From a phage: 44,996 bases of DNA. The DNA is taken from the sequence record PZ789432.1; one strand, 5' to 3'. Below the pieces are notes generated by a model, which was not told where the DNA came from, ran no database searches, and saw only the letters and a list, made by a program, of their open reading frames with translations. Shown piece by piece: positions 6,138 to 40,588 of this stretch (position 1 is the stretch's first letter; every line of letters starts with the position of its first letter). A program made the position numbers and the translations under genes.

Positions 6138-6153
6138 TGTCTCACACGTGAGA
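6138..6153. repeat. 16-bp palindrome GTCTCACACGTGAGAC
   Basis: 7-bp inverted arms GTCTCAC/GTGAGAC; lies just upstream of a phage promoter. Confidence 0.8.
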
Positions 6154-6156
6154 CTT

Positions 6157-6320: not shown

Positions 6321-6336
6321 GTCTCACATGTGAGAC
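6321..6336. repeat. 16-bp perfect palindrome GTCTCACATGTGAGAC
   Basis: Same family as 6138..6153; just upstream of a second phage promoter. Confidence 0.8.
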
Positions 6337-6521: not shown

Positions 6522-6740
6522 ATGGCTAAATACAGAATCAAGACCTGTTTAAATAGTCACGGGCAAGAATTCTACGTAGTGCAACGTAAAGTATTAGGCT
6601 TAATATGGCTCACTTGTATGATGCCTATTGGCTATACTGATACAGAGGCTATCTTCTGCACCGAAAGGGATGCAAAGAAGTTTATCTCTAAGCGTAGAAA
6701 AGCTGACTCTTACCAACCTAGAATTATTAAGGTGAACTAA
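6522..6740 (+). CDS. hypothetical protein (72 aa)
   Basis: ORF track; between gene 1.1-like and primase-helicase. Confidence 0.55.
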   Translation: MAKYRIKTCLNSHGQEFYVVQRKVLGLIWLTCMMPIGYTDTEAIFCTERDAKKFISKRRKADSYQPRIIKVN

Positions 6741-8728
6741 TGGCTATTATTAATAACATCCCGTGCCCTGCCTGTCAAAAGAATGGACATGATATTACTG
6801 GCAACCATCTTATGATATTTGAGGATGGCGCTGGTTACTGTAACCGTGGTCACTTCCATGATAATGGTAAGCCTTATTACCATAAGCCAGAGGGTGGTAT
6901 CGAGATAACCGAATTGCCTATTACTGGCAATATCAAATATACACCTTCTCAATTCAAAGAAATGGAGAAGGAAGGGAAGATAAGCGACCCTAAGCTACGC
7001 GCCATCGCACTTGGTGGTATGCGTATGAAAGATCGTTGGGAGGTCATGAATGAGCAAGAAAGGGCAGACCAAGAAGCAGAGTGGAAGCTTGATGTTGAAT
7101 GGTTCCTCACGCTTAAGCGTAAGAACCTTGTATCCCGTCACATTCGAGGTGACATCGCAGCAATGTACGATGTGCGCGTTGGACACGATGAAGAGGGAAG
7201 AGTCAACCGTCACTATTATCCACGATATGAAAAGGGTGTGCTTGTTGGAGCAAAATGCCGGACGTTGCCGAAGGATTTTAAGTTCGGACACCTAGGTAAA
7301 CTCTTTGGTATGCAAGACCTTTTCGGTATGAACACTTTGTCTCACGTGTTAGACAAGGGGAGACGAAAGGATTGCTTGCTTATTGTAGGCGGTGAACTTG
7401 ATGCACTAGCAGCGCAGCAGATGCTCCTTGATTCTGCCAAGGGTACTAAGTGGGAAGGCCAGCCATACCATGTATGGTCTGTCAACAAAGGCGAGTCTTG
7501 TCTTGAAGAGATAGTGCAAAACCGTGAGCATATCGCCCAATTCAAGAAGATTATATGGGGTTTTGATGGAGATGAGGTAGGGCAGAAGCAGAATCAGCAA
7601 GCGGCTCGCCTGTTTCCTGGCAAATCCTATATCCTTGAATACCCCTCTGGTTGCAAAGATGCTAACAAGGCATTGATGGCTGGCAAGGCTAAAGAGTTTG
7701 TAGATGCATGGTTTAATGCCAAGTCATCTGATGAAGTCTTTGGTAGCCAGATTAAATCTATCGCATCTCAAAGGGATAAGCTCAAGGCTGCACGTCCAGA
7801 GCAAGGACTATCATGGCCTTGGCCTAAGCTGAACAAGGTCACGCTAGGTATTCGTAAGAACCAACTTATCATTGTAGGCGCAGGCTCTGGTGTAGGTAAG
7901 ACTGAGTTCCTTCGTGAAGTAGTTAAGCACCTCATTGAAGAACACGGTGAATCTGTAGGCATCATTTCTACAGAAGACCCGATGGTCAAGGTGTCCCGTG
8001 CTTTTATCGGCAAGTGGATTGATAAGCGCATTGAGTTACCGCCAACCAACGACCCGAAAGAAGATGGATACCGTGAGGTGTTCGACTACACCGAGGAAGA
8101 GGCTAACGCCGCCATTGATTATGTAGCTGATACAGGTAAGCTGTTTGTAGCTGACCTAGAGGGTGACTATTCGATGGAAAAGGTAGAGCAAACTTGCCTA
8201 GAGTTTGAGGCTATGGGCATTTCTAATATCATCATTGATAACTTAACGGGGATTAAATTAGATGAGCGTGCTTTTGGTGGGAAGGTTGGTGCACTTGATG
8301 AATGCGTCAAGCGGATTGGTACTATCAAAGACCGACACCCGGTTACTATATTCCTTGTATCACACCTTACACGTCCTCCGGCAAACCGTACCCAACACGA
8401 AGAAGGTGGCGAGGTTATCCTTTCTGACTTCCGAGGCTCAGGCGCTATCGGATTCTGGGCATCTTACGCCTTGGGGATTGAGCGTAATACAAGAGCTGAA
8501 ACGCTTGACGAAAGGACTACCACGTACATCTCATGTGTCAAAGACCGCGACCAAGGAATATTTTCCGGTACTCGTATAATGCTTAAAGGTGATATTGCTA
8601 CTGGTCGATTACGTGAACCAGAGCAAAGATCTCGACCGTTTGATACTGGTGCTCCAAAAGAACAAACTGTACCAGAAGAAGTAGTGGATAAAGGAGGATT
8701 TATTGCTGACGAAGTTGAAGAGTTTTGA
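6740..8728 (+). CDS. DNA primase/helicase (T7 gp4-like)
   Basis: 662 aa; N-terminal zinc ribbon CPACQ...CNRGH; Walker A VGAGSGVGKTEF; acidic C-terminus ending EEF. Confidence 0.93.
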   Translation: MAIINNIPCPACQKNGHDITGNHLMIFEDGAGYCNRGHFHDNGKPYYHKPEGGIEITELPITGNIKYTPSQFKEMEKEGKISDPKLRAIALGGMRMKDRWEVMNEQERADQEAEWKLDVEWFLTLKRKNLVSRHIRGDIAAMYDVRVGHDEEGRVNRHYYPRYEKGVLVGAKCRTLPKDFKFGHLGKLFGMQDLFGMNTLSHVLDKGRRKDCLLIVGGELDALAAQQMLLDSAKGTKWEGQPYHVWSVNKGESCLEEIVQNREHIAQFKKIIWGFDGDEVGQKQNQQAARLFPGKSYILEYPSGCKDANKALMAGKAKEFVDAWFNAKSSDEVFGSQIKSIASQRDKLKAARPEQGLSWPWPKLNKVTLGIRKNQLIIVGAGSGVGKTEFLREVVKHLIEEHGESVGIISTEDPMVKVSRAFIGKWIDKRIELPPTNDPKEDGYREVFDYTEEEANAAIDYVADTGKLFVADLEGDYSMEKVEQTCLEFEAMGISNIIIDNLTGIKLDERAFGGKVGALDECVKRIGTIKDRHPVTIFLVSHLTRPPANRTQHEEGGEVILSDFRGSGAIGFWASYALGIERNTRAETLDERTTTYISCVKDRDQGIFSGTRIMLKGDIATGRLREPEQRSRPFDTGAPKEQTVPEEVVDKGGFIADEVEEF

Positions 8729-9404: not shown

Positions 9405-9420
9405 GTCTCACATGTGAGAC
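9405..9420. repeat. 16-bp perfect palindrome GTCTCACATGTGAGAC in a terminator-like context
   Basis: Flanks extend the pairing (gcttgtctcaca/tgtgagacaggc), followed by tcttatt. Confidence 0.8.
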
Positions 9421-10548: not shown

Positions 10549-10564
10549 GTCTCACACGTGAGAC
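10549..10564. repeat. 16-bp palindrome GTCTCACACGTGAGAC in a terminator-like context
   Basis: Extended stem ggttgtctcac/gtgagacagcc followed by tttcatc. Confidence 0.8.
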
Positions 10565-10703: not shown

Positions 10704-10908
10704 ATTAAGCAAGGTTTGCTCTTGCGGTAAAGGCTATCGCAGTCGTATTGATGGTAAGTGTGGACATTGTAGGTCTAAGAAAGAGGCTGCTTTGTTTTAC
10801 AAATACCACAATGAACTCTCCTATAACTACCCTCATCTAACACCTAATTCTTTATTAGGACTTGGTTATAGGGCTAAATACTTTGGAGCAATCTATGAAA
10901 TCAATTGA
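10690..10908 (+). CDS. hypothetical zinc-ribbon protein (72 aa)
   Basis: ORF track 10663..10908; ATG 10690 preferred (GAGG 6 nt upstream); CSCGKG...CGHC motif. Confidence 0.5.
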   Translation: MKTIKLSKVCSCGKGYRSRIDGKCGHCRSKKEAALFYKYHNELSYNYPHLTPNSLLGLGYRAKYFGAIYEIN

Positions 10909-11380
10909 TTGGAAGAAGGAAGCGGAAGGGCGCATCCTAGTTATGGACGCCGAGGCGAAAGGTCTACTTGATGCTATACGCTATGGTCATCGTGAAGACG
11001 TGCATATCATCTGCTGTATGGACCTGTTGACTACAGAGGAGTTTCTCTTCTTCGACCCGTATGAGATGCGTGACCCTGAAGCAAGAGAACGCCTGAAGGA
11101 ATGGGAAGGTCATCAAGATGGTGACTTGGTTGATGGTGTTAACTTCCTGAAGCATTGTGAAGCTATTGTGTCACAGAACTTCCTAGGGTATGACGGACTT
11201 CTCTTTGAGAAAGCATTCCCTGATATTTGGAAGGGCTTTAACTATACCGAGAAGCGCGGTAAGGGCAGACTCCGTGCTGACCTGTGTCCGGTGCGAGTCA
11301 TGGATACGCTGGTGATGAGTCGCCTGTTAAACCCAGATAAGACGCCTTCCTCCGCAAGCATATGCCAAAGGTATGGGTAA
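10895..11380 (+). CDS. DNA polymerase (Pol I family), fragment 1 of 4: 3'-5' exonuclease domain; frame-disrupted
   Basis: ORF track 10862..11380 (TTG), first ATG 10895; Exo motifs ILVMDAEAKGL and NFLGYDGLLFEKAF; VMDTLVMSRLL parallels T7 gp5 CIDTLVLSRLI. Homology continues in another frame. Confidence 0.85.
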   Translation: MKSIDWKKEAEGRILVMDAEAKGLLDAIRYGHREDVHIICCMDLLTTEEFLFFDPYEMRDPEARERLKEWEGHQDGDLVDGVNFLKHCEAIVSQNFLGYDGLLFEKAFPDIWKGFNYTEKRGKGRLRADLCPVRVMDTLVMSRLLNPDKTPSSASICQRYG

Positions 11381-11786
11381 CGTCGCCCCTCACTCAATTG
11401 AGGCGCACGGCATCCGTATAGGCCGCTATAAACCGGAGAACGAGGACTGGTCTAAACTAACTGACCACATGGTTCACCGTGTACGTGAGGACGTGGCGAT
11501 TGGTCGTGACTTGTTCCTCTGGCTCTTTAACGGGGAATGGATGGAGCATAAACGCCGTGGCGTGAATAAACGCACGGGCCTAGGCATTGAGACAGCCTTC
11601 CACATGGAGTCCATTGTGGCGCTGGAGATGAGCCGTCAGGCCGAGCGGGGGTTCCGTCTGGACATCGACAAGGCTTTGGCCCGATGCGAAGAATTGGACG
11701 CTAAGATTGATGAGACAGTCGCAGCGTTCCGCCCTCACATGCCTATGCGTATCAAGTCTAAACCTTTTAAACCGGAAGAAAAGTAA
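11373..11786 (+). CDS. DNA polymerase, fragment 2 of 4; frame-disrupted
   Basis: HSIEAHGIRIGRYK parallels T7 gp5 HALEAWGYRLGEMK; the frame is open upstream from 11331, so the shift lies near 11335..11372. Confidence 0.8.
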   Translation: MGNVAPHSIEAHGIRIGRYKPENEDWSKLTDHMVHRVREDVAIGRDLFLWLFNGEWMEHKRRGVNKRTGLGIETAFHMESIVALEMSRQAERGFRLDIDKALARCEELDAKIDETVAAFRPHMPMRIKSKPFKPEEK

Positions 11787-12445
11787 TGAAGTATGCCAAC
11801 GCGCAAATGAGTATGGAGCTAGCAACAATATACCTACTGTCCTTGACCCCTCACACTTTCTTCATGCCGAGAGACGAGGAGATCGCAAGACAGTATGGAG
11901 AGCTTGTCACTACTAAGTCTGGTGATTGGTCGGCTAGTGTTAAGAAAGACTTTCCTCACCTTAGAGGAAACCGTAATGACACGCCAAGCATCAAGTGGAT
12001 TGGCGCTTACTCGCCTGTTACTTTCGAAGAGATTCCCTTGGGTAACAGGGATACAGTTAAGCAAGTGCTCTATGATTATGGATGGAAAGGTGTTGAATTT
12101 AACGATACCGAGCAAGCGCATCTCGATGAGTACGGAGTGTTACCCAAACCTTGGAGTGGTAAGATAAATGAAAAGTCCCTCACTTTATGGCAAGAAAGAG
12201 CCGCACGTGAAGGTAAAACAGTACCTGATTGGTGCTTGGGTATCGCTGCATGGTACATACTCGTATCCCGTCGTGGTCAGATACTCAACCGTGGTGACGT
12301 TGAAGCCTTCAACGAGAAGGGGAACGTGGCCCTCGCAGGCTGGTGTACGAAAGTGTCGCGGCCTTGTACCTGTAGCATTCAACAAGGAGCTAGGAATCAA
12401 TGCGCAGCAATACTACGAGAGGTACGGATGTTGGCCTACGTCTGA
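11786..12445 (+). CDS. DNA polymerase, fragment 3 of 4; frame-disrupted
   Basis: Back in the frame of fragment 1; polymerase-like over its N-terminal two thirds. Confidence 0.7.
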   Translation: MKYANAQMSMELATIYLLSLTPHTFFMPRDEEIARQYGELVTTKSGDWSASVKKDFPHLRGNRNDTPSIKWIGAYSPVTFEEIPLGNRDTVKQVLYDYGWKGVEFNDTEQAHLDEYGVLPKPWSGKINEKSLTLWQERAAREGKTVPDWCLGIAAWYILVSRRGQILNRGDVEAFNEKGNVALAGWCTKVSRPCTCSIQQGARNQCAAILREVRMLAYV

Positions 12446-13448
12446 CAAAGATGACGGAGAGTGGCGTGTTCCAGCTGTTGCTATTAGTATTGGCACTTCT
12501 ACGTTCCGTATGCGTCATCGTAACGTGGTTAATATTCCTGCCCGTGGCTTGTATCCTTTACGTGATTTATTCATAGCAGGGAAAGGCAAGCTAATCCTTG
12601 GTTGTGACGGTGCAGGTCTTGAACTGCGTGTCCTGTCTCACTTCATGAATGACCCTGAGTACCAAGAGATTGTACTGCACGGTGATATTCATACGCATAA
12701 CCAGATGAAGGCTGGTCTTCCTAAGCGTGATATGGCGAAGACGTTTATATACGCCTTCCTCTATGGTTCTGGTATAGCCAACCTTGCAGCAGTCTGCGGT
12801 GTTACTGAGGAAGAAATGAAGGAAGTTGTGGCAAGATTCGAGATTGAACTACCGTCTCTTGCACGTCTTCGTGAGAATGTTATCGCACAAGGTAACAAGT
12901 TTGGCTACCTGCAAGCACCTGATGGGCATTGGGGTCGCATCCGCATGTCTGGTGGTGAACTTAAAGAGCACACGATGCTTAACGTATTACTCCAGATGAC
13001 TGGCTCTTTGTGTATGAAATATGCATTAGTCAAGGCATTTGCAGTAATGCGCAAGGAAGGTGTAGCTTTGGATGCTATGGGAAATCCTTGTGGTGTGGCT
13101 AACGTGCATGATGAAATCCAGATGGAAGTTCCTGAAGAGGAGGTCTTGTATCTTAACTACGACCTACCTTTCACCTTAGATGGGTTCGAAACAGAGAAGG
13201 CTGCTGTGAAAGCAGTTTTCGATGCAGAGGAGAAACGTGTTCATGTGGATTCTGAAGGACGTATGTGGTCTGCTGCAAACCTCGTTAGCGTTGATGCTGA
13301 TGCTGGTGTATTGCATTGCCAGCGCCGTTATCACCGTGCAGGTCATATCATTGCCGACGCCATGACTTGGGCAGGGCAGTATCTGAAGATGCGTTGCCCG
13401 ATGGCAGGAGAATATAAGATTGGCGCAAGCTGGAAGGAAACACACTGA
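12168..13448 (+). CDS. DNA polymerase, fragment 4 of 4: palm/fingers; frame-disrupted
   Basis: Motif A GCDGAGLELRVLSHF, TSTFRMRHRNVVNIP (T7 TGRATHAFPNLAQIP), KTFIYAFLYG, VHDEIQ. Reliable homology starts near 12430; the first ~260 nt of this ORF overlap fragment 3. Confidence 0.85.
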   Translation: MKSPSLYGKKEPHVKVKQYLIGAWVSLHGTYSYPVVVRYSTVVTLKPSTRRGTWPSQAGVRKCRGLVPVAFNKELGINAQQYYERYGCWPTSDKDDGEWRVPAVAISIGTSTFRMRHRNVVNIPARGLYPLRDLFIAGKGKLILGCDGAGLELRVLSHFMNDPEYQEIVLHGDIHTHNQMKAGLPKRDMAKTFIYAFLYGSGIANLAAVCGVTEEEMKEVVARFEIELPSLARLRENVIAQGNKFGYLQAPDGHWGRIRMSGGELKEHTMLNVLLQMTGSLCMKYALVKAFAVMRKEGVALDAMGNPCGVANVHDEIQMEVPEEEVLYLNYDLPFTLDGFETEKAAVKAVFDAEEKRVHVDSEGRMWSAANLVSVDADAGVLHCQRRYHRAGHIIADAMTWAGQYLKMRCPMAGEYKIGASWKETH

Positions 13449-14578: not shown

Positions 14579-15385
14579 ATGGCACGTGGTGATTTTGATT
14601 TTGGTGCTCAGGTTACTAAAGCTGAAGGTAAAGTATTTAAGAACCCTGAAGTTGGTGATCATGAAGCAGTAATCTCTGGCATCATTCATGTTGGTTCCTT
14701 CCAAGATATCTTTAAGAAAGGTAATACCACTGAAGTTAAGAAGCCAGCAAACTTTGTTCTTGTTAAGATTATCCTGATGGGTGACGACGATAAGAATGAA
14801 GATGATTCTCGCATGGAACAATGGATGGCTGTGCCTCTGAAGTCTGGTGATAAGGCAACACTGACTAAGTTCCTGAATGCAGTTGACCCTAAAGAGTTGC
14901 TGGGTGGCTTCGATGATTTTATCGGTGAATGCCTGACTGCAACTATGGTTGGCTCTGGCGACAAGAATGATGATGGTACTTTCAAGTATGTTAACTGGAA
15001 AGGCTTTGGCGGTATGCCTGATAAGTTGAAGAAGCTTGTACTGGCTCAGGTAGAAGAGGAAGGTCTGTCTATGACAGGTCATATCACCTTCGACAAGCTG
15101 ACCAAAGAAATCCTTGATGACATCCCAGCTAACTTGGTGCGTCAATACTTCCTTAATGAAACACCTCGTGGTAAGAACCTGTCTGTTGCTGGTTCTCACG
15201 TAGAAGCAATCATTAAAGCTGCTCGTGAAGAAGACCCAGAGTGGAAGAAAGCCAAGAAGAAAGATGACGAGGATGCTACTCCAGCTAATCGTAAATCTCT
15301 GGATACTGGTGAGTCTGTTCCACAGGAAGTACCTGAAGCAGAAGATACTCCTGCACCGGAGATGGATGAGGACGCGGAATATTAA
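14579..15385 (+). CDS. hypothetical protein with acidic C-terminal tail (268 aa); possible ssDNA-binding or replisome accessory protein
   Basis: ORF track; SD AGGAG; C-terminal 40 aa very acidic, ending DEDAEY. Confidence 0.7.
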   Translation: MARGDFDFGAQVTKAEGKVFKNPEVGDHEAVISGIIHVGSFQDIFKKGNTTEVKKPANFVLVKIILMGDDDKNEDDSRMEQWMAVPLKSGDKATLTKFLNAVDPKELLGGFDDFIGECLTATMVGSGDKNDDGTFKYVNWKGFGGMPDKLKKLVLAQVEEEGLSMTGHITFDKLTKEILDDIPANLVRQYFLNETPRGKNLSVAGSHVEAIIKAAREEDPEWKKAKKKDDEDATPANRKSLDTGESVPQEVPEAEDTPAPEMDEDAEY

Positions 15386-15394
15386 GGAGAAAGG

Positions 15395-15613
15395 ATGAAA
15401 GTACAAATCGTAACTCTGCACTGCAAGAAAGGTATCACAACGCTCGGAGGTAGCACTTTCCACTCTTTCTCCGAAGGGGAGATTTATGCTGACCTGCACT
15501 ACATCTGGCGCGACGGACAGCACGTGGTGAACTACAGCGACCCAGCTACGGGGAAACGCCACGGCGTATCGCTTCCGGCGCATGACATTGCTCAGGTGAA
15601 CACAGTTTTATAA
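15395..15613 (+). CDS. hypothetical protein (72 aa)
   Basis: ORF track; SD AAGGAG 5 nt upstream. Confidence 0.6.
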   Translation: MKVQIVTLHCKKGITTLGGSTFHSFSEGEIYADLHYIWRDGQHVVNYSDPATGKRHGVSLPAHDIAQVNTVL

Positions 15614-15614
15614 A

Positions 15615-15630
15615 GTCTCACGTGTGAGAC
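15615..15630. repeat. 16-bp palindrome GTCTCACGTGTGAGAC
   Basis: Same family; 15 bp upstream of a phage promoter. Confidence 0.8.
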
Positions 15631-15644
15631 AAATCGGTGTCCGG

Positions 15645-15668
15645 TATTTACTGGACACTATAGAAGAG
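15645..15668 (+). promoter_or_regulatory. phage RNAP promoter (tatttactggacactatagaagag)
   Basis: Exact consensus; +1 G at 15663. Confidence 0.8.
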
Positions 15669-15718
15669 AAGAATTTTAATCGGCGATAATGCCATAACCA
15701 ACAAAAGGAGAATTTAAT

Positions 15719-16099
15719 ATGTTCAAGATTGAAACTATCGTAAACCGTGTTGTTAAAGGTGCTGCTCTGGTATCCGTTGAGTCTTTCATTATCGTCGATG
15801 AAGCTGATCAACTGGTAGCTGGTACTAAGGCTTACGATACCCGTGAAGAAGCTCAGGCTAAGATTGACAGCATGGGTAACTTCGCTGCTGGTTTGGAGTT
15901 CGCTCGTGCTTGCTTCCCTGAGCAGGCTGACAAAGCTCAGATTGGTAAGGCTAATATCGTAGCTGAATATCTGGATTGGATTGCTGCTGGTAAGCCGGTG
16001 AAAGAAGTTAAGTCTGCTGAAGAAGCTGAATCTCAGGCAGTAGAAGAAGAAGTAGCTGCACCGGTAGATGCTCCGGTAAGCGAAGAGGAAGAGTTTTAA
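15719..16099 (+). CDS. hypothetical acidic protein (126 aa) ending SEEEEF; candidate SSB-like or polymerase-interacting protein
   Basis: ORF track; strong SD AAAGGAG; framed by a consensus promoter and a hairpin terminator. Confidence 0.75.
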   Translation: MFKIETIVNRVVKGAALVSVESFIIVDEADQLVAGTKAYDTREEAQAKIDSMGNFAAGLEFARACFPEQADKAQIGKANIVAEYLDWIAAGKPVKEVKSAEEAESQAVEEEVAAPVDAPVSEEEEF

Positions 16100-16105
16100 T
16101 TGATG

Positions 16106-16137
16106 CCCTGTCTGCCTTAGTGTAGGCAGGGTCTTTT
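16106..16137 (+). terminator. hairpin + U-run terminator
   Basis: ccctgtctgc-cttagt-gtaggcaggg followed by TCTTTT; similar in sequence to the terminator after the capsid gene. Confidence 0.6.
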
Positions 16138-16163
16138 GCGTAATAGTTATTGGAGAATGAATT

Positions 16164-16469
16164 ATGCCGACTATTAAATCTCGTTTAGTAGCAGACTATG
16201 TGTATGGTCGTGACTTAAAGTTAATGCAAGATTACTTTAAAGTAATCATCCTGCTGGATGGAGAAGTGTTTCACACTAAAACATTCACCCTTCCTGAATT
16301 GTTTGATTTAGGTTATTGGGGTTATACATATCAGGCCATAGCAGACAAGGTGCTACTCAGTGTATTAGAGGAGTGGCCTACATGCGACCAAACTTCGACT
16401 TCGGAGCTACAGTATCGGAAGACAATAACCTGTTGCTGTGGCCAACTGAAGGTAATAGAATCGCTTTAA
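16164..16469 (+). CDS. hypothetical protein (101 aa)
   Basis: ORF track; SD GGAG; 3' end overlaps the exonuclease start. Confidence 0.55.
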   Translation: MPTIKSRLVADYVYGRDLKLMQDYFKVIILLDGEVFHTKTFTLPELFDLGYWGYTYQAIADKVLLSVLEEWPTCDQTSTSELQYRKTITCCCGQLKVIESL

Positions 16470-17026
16470 TAGATGCTGACATGTTACCCTACATCGTAGG
16501 TTATACAATCAGTGACATGACTTATGTACGAGCCACAACTCGTGTTAAGTCAGGACAAGTCCCATCAATCAAAGATACACCTGAGTGTAAGCAAGCGTGT
16601 GACCGTGTGAACTCCTTGCTCAACTCTTGGGTGTATGCAGCAGAGTGTGATGCAGCTAAGTTATTCATGACGAAATCAGAAGCTAACTTCCGTGTTCGCC
16701 TAGCCTTCACCAAGCCTTACAAGGGTCAACGTAAGACCGAGAAGCCTCCGTTCTTCTATGAATTGCGAGAGCATCTCTTAGAGGTTCATGGTGCAATCTT
16801 GGCAGATGGAGAAGAGGCTGATGACCTCATGAGCATTGCACAATGGGACAGCCACCGCCGCTTCCAGCAAGCTACAGGTAACGAGTTCCCTATCGGTAGT
16901 CCAGAGCATAAAGCATTCTCTGATACTTGCATCGTTTCCTTAGATAAGGATTTGATGATTGTTCCCGGTTGGCATCTTCAGCCGGGTCAAGAGAAGAAAT
17001 GGGTTAGAGCCTATGGGTTGGCTTGA
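16382..17026 (+). CDS. 5'-3' exonuclease (T7 gp6-like), fragment 1 of 2; frame-disrupted
   Basis: ORF track 16316..17026 (non-ATG); ATG 16382 after GAGGAG; IALIDADMLPY, EEADDLMSIAQ and IVSLDKDLMIVPGW parallel T7 gp6. Confidence 0.85.
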   Translation: MRPNFDFGATVSEDNNLLLWPTEGNRIALIDADMLPYIVGYTISDMTYVRATTRVKSGQVPSIKDTPECKQACDRVNSLLNSWVYAAECDAAKLFMTKSEANFRVRLAFTKPYKGQRKTEKPPFFYELREHLLEVHGAILADGEEADDLMSIAQWDSHRRFQQATGNEFPIGSPEHKAFSDTCIVSLDKDLMIVPGWHLQPGQEKKWVRAYGLA

Positions 17027-17411
17027 GCTACGCCGTAAGGCTAATGGTCAGGTTAAAGACCTTAAAGGTGCTGGCCTCATGTTTCATTATGCACAGATGA
17101 TTATCGGTGATGATATTGATAACTATGCTGGCATACCTGGACGTGGTGCTAAATACGCCTATGATCTTCTCAAAGATTGTAAGACAGAGAAAGAGTTGTA
17201 CATGGCAGTGCTTGGTGCTTACAAGGCTAAGTTCGGACATGGACAAGTTAAGATTAAGAATTACCGAGGTGGTTATCGTATCGGCAAGGCTTTTGACCTG
17301 ATGCTCGAATGTGGTCGCCTAGCGCACATGGCAAGATTCAAAGGTGATATATGGCGAGCCGATAAGAACCCAATCTTGTGGGGAGATGATGCGGAATGGT
17401 TAGCAAATTAA
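16959..17411 (+). CDS. 5'-3' exonuclease, fragment 2 of 2; frame-disrupted
   Basis: MFHYAQMIIGDDIDNYAGIPGRG parallels T7 gp6 HLFQTIKGDITDGYSGIAGWG; the frame changes near 16990..17026. Confidence 0.8.
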   Translation: MFPVGIFSRVKRRNGLEPMGWLELRRKANGQVKDLKGAGLMFHYAQMIIGDDIDNYAGIPGRGAKYAYDLLKDCKTEKELYMAVLGAYKAKFGHGQVKIKNYRGGYRIGKAFDLMLECGRLAHMARFKGDIWRADKNPILWGDDAEWLAN

Positions 17412-17806: not shown

Positions 17807-18806
17807 GCTTCGCAGCTTGTACAAAGACTCCGAGGTACTTGATGCAATCGAGCAAGCTACCGACGAGAAAGGTAATGTTAATTATAATGAGATGGCACGT
17901 GTATTATCGTGTCACCCTGTGGGTAAGAAGATTACCCGCCAGTTGGCTCGATACTGGCATGGTCAATTCAAGAAGACCAAGAAGAATGGTGATTATTACC
18001 AGACCCTTCTGCAAGAAGATAAGCGTATCAAAGAAGAGCGTAAGCTCAGGACTCCTGACCGCTACGAGGATTTGGCTATTGTACCATTGCCTGACTCGCC
18101 TCATCGAAGTGTACTGGTAATCCCTGATACTCATGCACCTTATGAGCATCCAGATACCTTAGAGTTCCTTGCAGCAGTCGCGGCACGTTACCGTCCAGAT
18201 ACAGTGGTTCACTTAGGAGATGAGGCAGATAAACACGCCCTCTCCTTCCATGACTCTGACCCTAATCTGGATAGTGCTGGCATGGAGCTAGAGAAGGCTC
18301 GTGTCTTCATGCACAAGTTGCACAAGATGTTCCCTGTGATGCGCCTGTGTCATTCTAATCACGGCTCTATGCACTTCCGTAAGGCAAGCGCCAAGGGTAT
18401 TCCAGTGCAATATCTTCGCACCTACCGTGAAGTCTTTTTCCCAAATGGAGGTGGCGACCAGTGGGATTGGCAGCATACACATGTTCTTGAGTTGCCGAAT
18501 GGTGAACAAGTGGCATTCAAGCATCAACCTGCTGGCTCTGTCCTAGCAGATGCAGCGCATGAGCGTATGAACCTTGTGTGTGGTCACTTGCACGGTAAGA
18601 TGTCTGTGGAGTACGCACGTAATACACATGAACAGTATTGGGCTGTGCAAGGTGGCTGCTTAATTGATGAGTCATCCCGTGCATTTGCCTATGGGCGTGA
18701 GTCTAAATACAAGCCAGCATTAGGTTGTGTGGTTATTCTGGAGGGTGTGCCTCATATTGTCCCGATGCAAACCAATAGCGACAACCGTTGGATTGGCAAG
18801 ATTTAG
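17799..18806 (+). CDS. calcineurin-like metallophosphoesterase
   Basis: ORF track 17667..18806 (frame open upstream); motifs VIPDTHAP, LGDEAD, HSNHG, GHLHG. Likely start TTG 17799 six nt after AAGGAGG; first ATG is at 17892. Confidence 0.75.
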   Translation: MGKLRSLYKDSEVLDAIEQATDEKGNVNYNEMARVLSCHPVGKKITRQLARYWHGQFKKTKKNGDYYQTLLQEDKRIKEERKLRTPDRYEDLAIVPLPDSPHRSVLVIPDTHAPYEHPDTLEFLAAVAARYRPDTVVHLGDEADKHALSFHDSDPNLDSAGMELEKARVFMHKLHKMFPVMRLCHSNHGSMHFRKASAKGIPVQYLRTYREVFFPNGGGDQWDWQHTHVLELPNGEQVAFKHQPAGSVLADAAHERMNLVCGHLHGKMSVEYARNTHEQYWAVQGGCLIDESSRAFAYGRESKYKPALGCVVILEGVPHIVPMQTNSDNRWIGKI

Positions 18807-19411: not shown

Positions 19412-19585
19412 ATGGAAGGTAAACTATATAGAGGGTACTTCGGTAACTTATATAAAGTAAGCTCTCGCGGTTTTGTATTGACCTCTGATGATGAAGGTGC
19501 AATGTGGCACCTAAGTGCATATGGTTCTAACTTAGCACACTTTAAAGAGGCAATAGTCAAAGGTGTGATGAAGGAGGTGAAATGA
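19412..19585 (+). CDS. hypothetical protein (57 aa)
   Basis: ORF track 19394..19585; ATG 19412 follows the previous stop; alternative ATG 19397. Confidence 0.5.
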   Translation: MEGKLYRGYFGNLYKVSSRGFVLTSDDEGAMWHLSAYGSNLAHFKEAIVKGVMKEVK

Positions 19586-20529
19586 ACATCTTCCAATTCC
19601 TAGGTCTTCCAGAAGACCACCGCAATCATCCATTCATGCTGGTGAAGCATCGCGGTGAAGTTCCTGAGAAGAAACTTACTTTTCCATGTTATGCACAGGT
19701 GAAACGAGATGGAATATTCAGTGCTGTTGTGGTGCGCAATGATGGTGCTGTTGCCGTCTTTGGTCGTACTGGTAAGAAGCTCGCAAATGTTGAAGCCTTG
19801 GAAAAGACATTTAGTGTATTTCCTGTCGGGTTGTATCTTGGTGAGTTGCAATCTATGGCTGTTGATGTTTATCTTGAAGCTCTGTCAGGAGTGGTAAACC
19901 CTAATCGTACAGAGCCACTTGACTTCATAGGCCAGCAGATTAAAGACAACCTGTATATCGACTTCTTCGATATGTTAACTATTAAGGCATTCCATGATGG
20001 ATTCACTGATGTTTCTTATCTCAAACGTTACGATGCTTTACATCGTCGTATCGGCACTCATCTTAGCGGGTGCAACGCTATCCTTCCTATCACTCCTTGC
20101 CATAATGAGCGAGAAGTTGAAGCGTTTGCGCAAGAGCAAATAGATGCAGGACGTGAGGGTGCTGTATTCAAACTGGACTGCGATTATGAAGCAGGACACA
20201 AAGGTTATCGTCAGACTAAAGAAGTCCGTAAGGTAACTTATGACCTTACTTGTATTGGCTTTGAAGAAGGTAAAGGTAAATACAAAGGTAAGGTAGCTAA
20301 CCTCATTTTCAAGTGGAAAGGGGGCAAGACAATCAAAGCTATGCTCGGTAAAGGGTGGACTCATGCAGATGCAGAACAGATGTTCCACGATATTAAACAT
20401 GGCGGACGGTTGAATGTCATTGGTAAAATCTTTGAAGTCAAAGGTCTTCAGGATTCAAGCAAGGGCAACATTCGTCTGCCCAAAGCGGGAGAATTAAGAC
20501 ATGACAAAGATGAACCAGATTTCTTTTGA
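19582..20529 (+). CDS. ATP-dependent DNA ligase
   Basis: 315 aa; adenylation motif I AQVKRDGIF (KxDG); SD AAGGAGG. Confidence 0.85.
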   Translation: MNIFQFLGLPEDHRNHPFMLVKHRGEVPEKKLTFPCYAQVKRDGIFSAVVVRNDGAVAVFGRTGKKLANVEALEKTFSVFPVGLYLGELQSMAVDVYLEALSGVVNPNRTEPLDFIGQQIKDNLYIDFFDMLTIKAFHDGFTDVSYLKRYDALHRRIGTHLSGCNAILPITPCHNEREVEAFAQEQIDAGREGAVFKLDCDYEAGHKGYRQTKEVRKVTYDLTCIGFEEGKGKYKGKVANLIFKWKGGKTIKAMLGKGWTHADAEQMFHDIKHGGRLNVIGKIFEVKGLQDSSKGNIRLPKAGELRHDKDEPDFF

Positions 20530-20716
20530 TAGCATGAAGGCAACTCGTGCAGTTGAGGTAGCAGAAGCTATCTTTGAAACTTTATCATGTGGCATGGAAG
20601 TGCCATATACTTTACTTGCTGATGCAGAAGAACTTGGTCTTTCTGTAGAAGCTATCCAAGAGAAGGTTGACGAATTATATGGTACAGACGAAGAAGAAAC
20701 CGACGATTTCATTTGA
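20501..20716 (+). CDS. hypothetical small acidic protein (71 aa)
   Basis: ORF track; start overlaps the ligase 3' end; acidic C-terminus EEETDDFI. Confidence 0.55.
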   Translation: MTKMNQISFDSMKATRAVEVAEAIFETLSCGMEVPYTLLADAEELGLSVEAIQEKVDELYGTDEEETDDFI

Positions 20717-24003: not shown

Positions 24004-24027
24004 TATTTACTGGACACTATAGAAGGG
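24004..24027 (+). promoter_or_regulatory. phage RNAP promoter for the capsid gene (tatttactggacactatagaaggg)
   Basis: Exact consensus; +1 G at 24022; transcript starts with hairpin gggagaaaatgtctccc. Confidence 0.8.
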
Positions 24028-25282: not shown

Positions 25283-25290
25283 TACCTATG

Positions 25291-25323
25291 CCCTATCTAC
25301 CTTGCGTAGGTAGGGTTCTTTTT
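25291..25323 (+). terminator. hairpin + U-run terminator after the capsid gene (T-phi analog)
   Basis: ccctatctac-cttgc-gtaggtaggg followed by TTCTTTTT. Confidence 0.65.
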
Positions 25324-32163: not shown

Positions 32164-32179
32164 GTCTCACATGTGAGAC
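32164..32179. repeat. 16-bp perfect palindrome GTCTCACATGTGAGAC in a terminator-like context
   Basis: Extended stem cttgtctcaca/tgtgagacagg followed by tcttt. Confidence 0.8.
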
Positions 32180-40564: not shown

Positions 40565-40588
40565 GATTTACTGGACACTATAGAAGAG
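40565..40588 (+). promoter_or_regulatory. phage RNAP promoter upstream of the tailspike genes (gatttactggacactatagaagagg)
   Basis: Exact consensus; +1 G at 40583. Confidence 0.8.

Follow-up and report, generated by a model that had tools for sequence, protein, structure and literature searches.

Gene 18 of an SP6-like Escherichia coli phage uses capsid-type expression signals and belongs to the core genes of the DNA-replication and recombination module. The gene was analyzed in the sequence record PZ789432.1 (44,996 nt, one strand, 5' to 3'; the whole stretch is called the window below), in which it lies with its promoter and terminator at about 15,645 to 16,137. In its 126-residue product, gp18, an N-terminal domain and the acidic tip are constrained and the linker between them is not, which is the tail architecture of proteins that bind single-stranded DNA (SSBs). 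Judged from its members' sequences, the family combines a docking tail of known type with a domain that has no recognisable relatives. An earlier model-generated note on the window (the original prediction) had proposed that gp18 is either a compact SSB or an uncharacterised replisome accessory factor. The first proposal is probably wrong, and the second is tentatively preferred here.

The window derives from a member of the genus Vectrevirus (Autographiviridae, Molineuxvirinae; K1E / K1-5 / SP6 group), an SP6-like E. coli phage. Positions 15400-16400 matched 101 phage records by megablast; the nearest were E. coli Vectrevirus phages, and the top match was 99.4% identical over the full length. 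The open reading frame (ORF) carries the gene number 18 in K1E and in AY370673, the SP6 record; an alternative SP6 numbering calls it SP6_20 (gp20). Residues 1-126 matched phrog_4429 (PHROGs; function not assigned) with an E value of 2.3e-56, 212 homologues were retrieved by homologue search, and the protein was labelled hypothetical in every record inspected. Literature searches, whose reach did not extend to the SP6 genome papers (Dobbins 2004; Scholl 2004), returned nothing relevant on gp18 function. Single-sequence searches gave no significant match in Pfam, NCBIfam, PADLOC, or PDB, and family-based searches of Pfam and PDB were likewise empty. A scan of 15300-16500 against Rfam gave no match.

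The consensus promoter, strong Shine-Dalgarno sequence, 126-residue ORF, and hairpin/U-run terminator described in the original prediction were all found in place (Table 1). Seven SP6-type promoters with at most three mismatches were detected in the window and none in shuffled sequences, and ATTTACTGGACACTATAGAAGAG, the form that precedes gp18, is the modal one. It is the same as the copy at 40566, has one mismatch to the major capsid promoter at 24005, is identical in VEc3, mutPK1A2, and K1E, and is nearly identical in SP6. The alignment of the upstream region, including the 5' untranslated region (UTR) of gp18, had a mean column identity of 95% from Vectrevirus to SP6. The gp18 terminator (folding energy -18.3 kcal/mol, z -3.6) is identical in VEc3, SP6, and K1E. 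The terminators of the capsid gene (25290-25323, GCCCTATCTACC…GGTAGGGT) and of gp18 (16105-16138, GCCCTGTCTGCC…GGCAGGGT) are near-copies, in which a single stem pair differs by a compensatory G-C to A-T change.

Codon usage was scored as the fraction of E. coli-optimal codons (Fop), with the optimal set taken from general knowledge and Fop used as a proxy for expression. Among the 25 genes scored, gp18 ranked first (0.75), the capsid gene had 0.71, and most enzymes had 0.46-0.54; GCT was used for 21 of the 23 alanine codons of gp18. Expression signals and codon usage together predict that gp18 is probably present in very high abundance. The layout had been compared to that of the most abundant T7 proteins, and the comparison holds: the arrangement is capsid-style, the terminator is paralogous to that of the capsid gene, and the Fop is the highest of the 25. 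A promoter-like sequence (judged by eye) was also seen 5' of the gp18 homologue in Pseudomonas phage Alpheus and Vibrio phage Vp670, and in these two phages and Marinomonas phage CB5A a stable hairpin with a U-run (-21 to -26 kcal/mol) stands directly 3' of the homologue. The sequences of these distant terminators are unrelated.

Downstream of 16138, the first match to the promoter core (at most three mismatches) is a weak one, at 18806, and a promoter of consensus grade does not follow until 24005. None of the genes for gp19, the exonuclease, endonuclease VII, and the phosphoesterase has its own promoter-like match, so they would have to be transcribed by read-through of the gp18 terminator. 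The unit had been described as a self-contained single-gene cassette; it does have its own promoter and terminator, but the downstream genes appear to depend on read-through at 16138. As far as the sequence allows this to be judged, it is an attenuated cassette like the T7 phi10-gene 10-Tphi unit and not a closed one. The T7 unit and the phage's own capsid unit share with it a strong promoter, a strong Shine-Dalgarno sequence, an optimised ORF, and a partly read-through terminator, whereas the gene so equipped in the gp18 unit is non-structural and lies midway through the replication module. Seven terminators have been reported for SP6, of which t5 terminates at 86% (PMC11347151); no match of t5 as given there to the gp18 hairpin could be established.

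The assignment of gp18 to the core of the module follows from the distribution of the family and from its fixed gene order. Members were found by tblastn in 213 phage records, in Molineuxvirinae (phages of Escherichia, Klebsiella, Salmonella, Proteus, Erwinia, and Pectobacterium), in Colwellvirinae (phages of Vibrio, Pseudomonas, Marinomonas, Aeromonas, and Shewanella), and in some unplaced genera. In all 19 annotated genomes inspected, the order was DNA polymerase, a few small ORFs, gp16 (255-271 residues), zero to two small ORFs, and gp18, followed, sometimes after one or two further small ORFs, by the 5'-3' exonuclease and endonuclease VII.

Across 20 close homologues, residues 1-95 hardly vary. 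The linker carries insertions and deletions even between close relatives and cannot be aligned among distant homologues. When 1.8 billion cluster representatives were searched exhaustively without a profile, only 24 relatives came up, down to about 30% identity, and the positions retained to that level are K37, A45, G58, A64, K77-A78-N79, A82, W87, and G91. These conserved Lys, Asn, Ala, Gly, and Trp residues form no catalytic-looking set, and by appearance gp18 is not enzyme-like. The acidic tail with a terminal Phe noted in the original prediction was borne out by the family: SEEEEF is invariant in the close homologues, and 18 of 22 distant homologues have a C-terminal tip that is acidic and carries Phe as its last residue or at most two residues before the end (for example EEETF, EEVDF, GEESF, EDETF, and EVEEF). 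Linker and tip together span 13-32 residues, with a net charge of -3 to -13 in most members; the isoelectric point (pI) of gp18 is 4.3. In the AlphaFold model, the predicted local distance difference test score (pLDDT) was about 76-84 for residues 1-50, lower beyond, and below 50 for residues 93-126.

Such a tail could be a generic acidic disordered appendage that provides solubility or autoinhibition, with the function of gp18 residing in the N-terminal domain, possibly as a dimerising beta-beta-alpha unit of the DUF1508/YegP type, apart from replisome docking. Residues ~20-50 do resemble DUF1508/YegP (UPF0339; PF07411) in a strand-turn-strand, the pattern G-x-K-x-[YH]-x-T-x-E-E-A, and a helix; the likeness is weak and not statistically supported, and gp18 has extra helices and the acidic tail in addition. 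The gp18 of the window had no Pfam match, one of 22 family members matched DUF1508 (E 0.16), and profile-profile comparison by hhalign with a verified DUF1508 protein (YegP) gave a probability of 0.15%. An appendage of this kind would also not be expected to retain its terminal aromatic residue down to 30% identity while the linker changes completely. We consider this explanation quite unlikely.

Table 1. Coordinates of the gp18 cassette, the parts of its product, and related features in the window.
Feature	Position	Strand	Description
SP6-type phage RNA polymerase promoter	15646-15668	+	ATTTACTGGACACTATAGAAGAG; +1 G at 15663; exact modal form
5' UTR, 56 nt	15663-15718	+	AAGGAG Shine-Dalgarno sequence at 15705-15710, 8 nt 5' of the ATG at 15719
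gp18 ORF	15719-16099	+	126 residues; C-terminus SEEEEF
gp18 residues 1-95, globular alpha/beta domain (predicted)	15719-16003	+	beta-hairpin 3-26; helices 42-65 and 79-89
gp18 residues 96-120, disordered Ala/Pro/Glu-rich acidic linker (predicted)	16004-16078	+	pLDDT < 50; variable in sequence and length
gp18 residues 121-126, tip SEEEEF, with stop codon	16079-16099	+	invariant in 20 close homologues
Intrinsic terminator or attenuator of gp18	16105-16138	+	11-bp hairpin at 16105-16132, then CTTTTG; terminator scan
Terminator of the major capsid gene	25290-25323 (hairpin 25290-25316)	+	paralogue of the gp18 terminator; terminator scan and alignment
gp16-like protein, 268 residues	14579-15385	+	predicted OB fold and acidic tail ending DEDAEY; phrog_862 (function not assigned)
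Primase-helicase	6740-8728	+	C-terminus ...ADEVEEF; second protein with a tail of the gp18 type
Hairpin GTCTCACGTGTGAGAC	15615-15630	+	directly 3' of the gp17 stop codon, 15 nt 5' of the promoter; upstream boundary of the cassette
GTCTCAC-NN-GTGAGAC copies	6139-6154, 6321-6336, 9405-9420, 10549-10564, 15615-15630, 32164-32179	+

A compact, non-canonical SSB, the first proposal of the original prediction, would agree with the abundance of gp18, its acidic Phe-ended tail, and its location in the replication module, and both OB folds and novel SSB folds escape easy detection from sequence (PMC4889955). The structure prediction that had been recommended as a check gave an alpha/beta model without an OB fold, and the structure search with that model returned no known-fold match. 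The globular domain is slightly acidic, its net charge ranging from -5 to +1 among family members, which lends no support to ssDNA binding. The difficulty of aligning gp18 with the T7 SSB gp2.5 was reproduced: hhalign of the gp18 family against gp2.5 gave a probability of 0.17%, and by BLASTP none of gp15 to gp19 had a homologue among the T7 class II proteins (E > 1 for gp18), so that T7 has no counterpart of gp18 by this comparison. The two proteins are alike in being abundant (for gp18, by prediction), in having their own phage promoter, in belonging to the replication module, and in their disordered acidic tail with terminal Phe (...DEDGDF in gp2.5). They differ in length (232 residues in gp2.5, 126 in gp18), in the lack of any sequence or profile similarity, and in fold, an OB barrel in gp2.5 and a predicted non-OB fold in gp18.

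In this phage the slot of gp2.5 appears to be filled by gp16, a separate protein with a predicted OB fold. Its AlphaFold model was good (pLDDT 77, predicted template modelling score 0.71), and Foldseek against PDB placed PrgE, subunits of RPA, PriB, and bacterial SSBs among the top matches, beside unrelated proteins (best E 1.5e-3). The C-termini of the gp16 family are E-Y, E-F, or D-F. No annotated SSB was present in any record inspected of the SP6-like phages (Molineuxvirinae and Colwellvirinae). The gp16 family showed no similarity to T7 gp2.5 by hhalign, and the comparison of the gp18 and gp16 families was negative as well. On the basis of predicted fold and tail, gp16 is the likely SSB of the phage and clearly a better candidate than gp18. 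Because the SSB is most likely gp16, the notion of gp18 as an ssDNA-coating protein is not supported and is probably wrong; even a compact, non-canonical form of it seems very unlikely.

Tails like that of gp18 are rare in the window. Only 4 of 261 ORFs (at least 40 residues, six frames) combine an aromatic C-terminal residue with three or more acidic residues in the final eight positions, and all four encode replication proteins: the primase-helicase (DEVEEF, the EEF of which the original prediction had read correctly), gp16 (DEDAEY), gp18 (SEEEEF), and DNA ligase (DEPDFF). In the T7 class II region, such tails occur on gp2.5 and gp4 only. The tips were surveyed in 15 phage loci (the window, L008-L011, and L013-L022) from 11 lineages, and an acidic-aromatic tip was found on the helicase in 15 of 15, on gp16 in 15 of 15, and on gp18 in 14 of 15, where it took forms such as EEEEF, EDETF, SEESF, EDAAY, and ESFEG. 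The gp18 of Proteus phage PM 116 (L022 11001-11324) has 107 residues, and the T-run after its gene lacks the usual hairpin; it is either a natural tail-less variant or a sequencing artefact.

Within genomes, the tips of helicase and gp16 covary (permutation p 0.0016, one genome per lineage, 11 lineages; 35 identical positions among the last four residues against 20 expected), which fits a receptor shared by the two, as would be the case for T7 gp4 and gp2.5. For gp18, co-evolution of the tip with those of helicase and gp16 was considered and dropped (permutation p 0.35 and 0.43, respectively). Anecdotal co-changes were seen in Aeromonas phage MJG, where all three tips end in Tyr (ASY, ATY, AAY), and in Uliginvirus phages, where both gp16 and gp18 have one or two extra residues after the Phe. 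By its sequence gp18 belongs to the tail class; since its tip does not covary significantly with the other two, its receptor may differ from theirs.

The pairing of gp18 with gp16 admits another explanation, that gp18 is a partner or regulator of the SSB candidate. The gp18 tail would act as a DNA mimic in the gp16 groove, much as the T7 gp2.5 tail does in its own, or the N-terminal domain would bind gp16, and gp18 would tune how the SSB is loaded or removed, for instance in front of the adjoining exonuclease in recombination. The genes are separated by two positions, and their co-occurrence is nearly perfect: gp16 is in 216 and gp18 in 213 records, divided among hosts in the same way; codon optimisation is high in both (Fop 0.63 for gp16), as would suit stoichiometric amounts, and the extended tails of Uliginvirus are shared by both. 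T7 offers an established precedent, in which the gp2.5 tail competes with ssDNA for the same surface (works cited in PMC10359462). The co-occurrence, however, may simply be that of two core genes of one clade, and the tips of the two proteins gave only p 0.43 for covariation. Overall, we regard a dedicated gp16 regulator as unlikely.

The tip also invites comparison with the host. Bacterial SSB (…DDDIPF) resembles gp18 in having a folded domain, a variable low-complexity linker, and an acidic Phe-ended tip, which in bacterial SSB serves as a protein-docking peptide (PMC10359462); it differs in the Ile-Pro of the tip and in the OB fold, neither of which gp18 has. As a host-directed decoy, gp18 would mimic the host SSB tip or nucleic acid and sequester SSB-interacting or DNA-binding proteins or a defence sensor. 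Capsid-level signals and codon usage would suit a stoichiometric inhibitor, the low pI agrees with mimicry of this kind, and in T7 the slot between polymerase and exonuclease holds the host-directed proteins gp5.5 and gp5.9 (by annotation). Yet the gp18 tips differ between phages and lack Ile-Pro-Phe, whereas the host SSB tip generally shows almost no variation among gammaproteobacteria. The family is a fixed core gene rather than an accessory one, and gp18 had no PADLOC match and no similarity to T7 class II proteins, including gp5.5 and gp5.9 (E > 1). A decoy role is therefore judged improbable, to about the same degree as the generic appendage.

The T7 replisome is the textbook minimal replisome, in which partner exchange on the polymerase depends centrally on the acidic tails of gp2.5 and gp4, and the C-terminal Phe of the T7 tail has an essential role. 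T7 gp4 (...SNDTDF) and the primase-helicase of the window (...DEVEEF) share with gp18 the succession of acidic residues and a terminal Phe; the gp4 tail sits on a large enzyme, whereas the tail of gp18 makes up a quarter of a small protein without a recognisable enzymatic domain. In the preferred reading, the gp18 tip would serve for docking and fall into one class with the tails of primase-helicase and gp16, and gp18 would be an abundant replisome accessory or regulator rather than an ssDNA-coating protein. By analogy with gp4 and gp2.5, its docking partner would be one of the phage's replication proteins, with the DNA polymerase as the likeliest. The polymerase is put first among the candidate receptors because the gp2.5 tail is reported to interact with polymerase and helicase (PMC10359462). 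The DNA-binding groove of gp16 would be the second candidate.

The fallback of the original prediction, an uncharacterised replisome accessory factor, is in this sense the most plausible account, given a core replication-module gene and the class of its tail, but it is not demonstrated. That the tail docks at all, on which partner, and what the N-terminal domain does are points that we infer, and the proposal that gp18 is an abundant accessory or regulator docking by its tail on a phage replication protein is put forward tentatively, at a little short of an even chance.

Several observations weigh against it. The polymerases of VEc3 (L001 1724-4270) and four relatives were aligned with T7 gp5: the front basic patch of the T7 enzyme (K587-R591) is not conserved in the SP6-like polymerases, and the insertion in their thumb, at the position of the T7 thioredoxin-binding domain, exceeds that domain in length and is unrelated to it. 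The tip is missing from gp18 of Proteus phage PM 116, which ends EEAPE, and the lack of significant covariation with the helicase and gp16 tips counts in the same direction. Confidence in the structural model is no more than moderate (mean pLDDT 62) and is weak for residues 57-92. Finally, the near-capsid expression predicted for gp18 would exceed the need for a 1:1 polymerase cofactor, and coating, sequestering, competing, or buffering fits such amounts better. A more specific form of the docking proposal takes up this point: gp18 would be a small, non-OB component of the SP6-type replisome, so far unrecognised, abundant at capsid level, and without a T7 counterpart, whose tail shares or competes for the docking site of helicase and gp16 and so sets partner exchange on the polymerase or on gp16-coated DNA. 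This form is possible but doubtful.

Molineuxvirinae and Colwellvirinae include many therapeutic phages (K1-capsule, Klebsiella, Vibrio, and Erwinia phages), and the analysis highlights two uncharacterised core proteins in them, gp16 as a probable OB-fold SSB and gp18 as a third tail bearer with a novel domain. If gp18 does use the same docking site, it would add a regulatory layer absent from T7, and a change of the single C-terminal residue would be an easy experimental handle. If the docking reading is false, gp18 would still probably be a very abundant phage protein and a reasonable target for study.

The cassette is bounded upstream by a repeated intergenic hairpin (Table 1), the copy of which at 15615-15630 has a folding energy of -7.2 kcal/mol. 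The motif GTCTCAC-NN-GTGAGAC occurs six times in the window, always intergenic and on the + strand, with 0 copies expected by chance. Three copies stand 3-15 nt ahead of phage promoters, and three have extended stems followed by T-rich tracts. The motif was also found, with the stem sequence kept, in Pseudomonas phage Alpheus and Vibrio phage Vp670, which belong to another subfamily; copies outside the window are at L003 4798-4814 and at L004 4847-4863 and 8053-8069. In the SP6 copy of the 15615-15630 hairpin, pairing is preserved through one compensatory and one wobble change, which suggests an RNA-level element, for example a processing site, a 3'-end stabiliser, or a terminator.

The tail of the DNA ligase (window 19582-20529, +; L001 10175-11122) consists of Asp and an aromatic residue directly after the conserved R-x-D-K motif. 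Ligase ends include DEPDFF, EVPDVY, SEPDF, NADF, TEGDF, and DGDF; two ligases end PDV, and ligase tails were also found in L004, L005, L013-L016, and L018-L022. This end may be a fourth docking tail, or merely the end of the OB domain of the ligase. The small ORF 3' of the ligase (window 20501-20716, +; L001 11240-11437) ends TDEEETDDFI, which is acidic with a near-terminal Phe; it has 71 residues as the longest ORF in the window and 65 in the VEc3 annotation.

In the alignment with T7 gp5, the SP6-like polymerases have a basic insertion just after the position of T7 K587-R591. Two genes of the module are split in the window. The DNA polymerase (10895-13445, +) is broken into five frame segments by four frameshifts, and the 5'-3' exonuclease (16382-17408, +) into two segments by one, relative to the intact genes of VEc3. 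The segments are 92-99% identical to the VEc3 genes, and the splits are most likely indel errors in the assembly rather than real pseudogenes.
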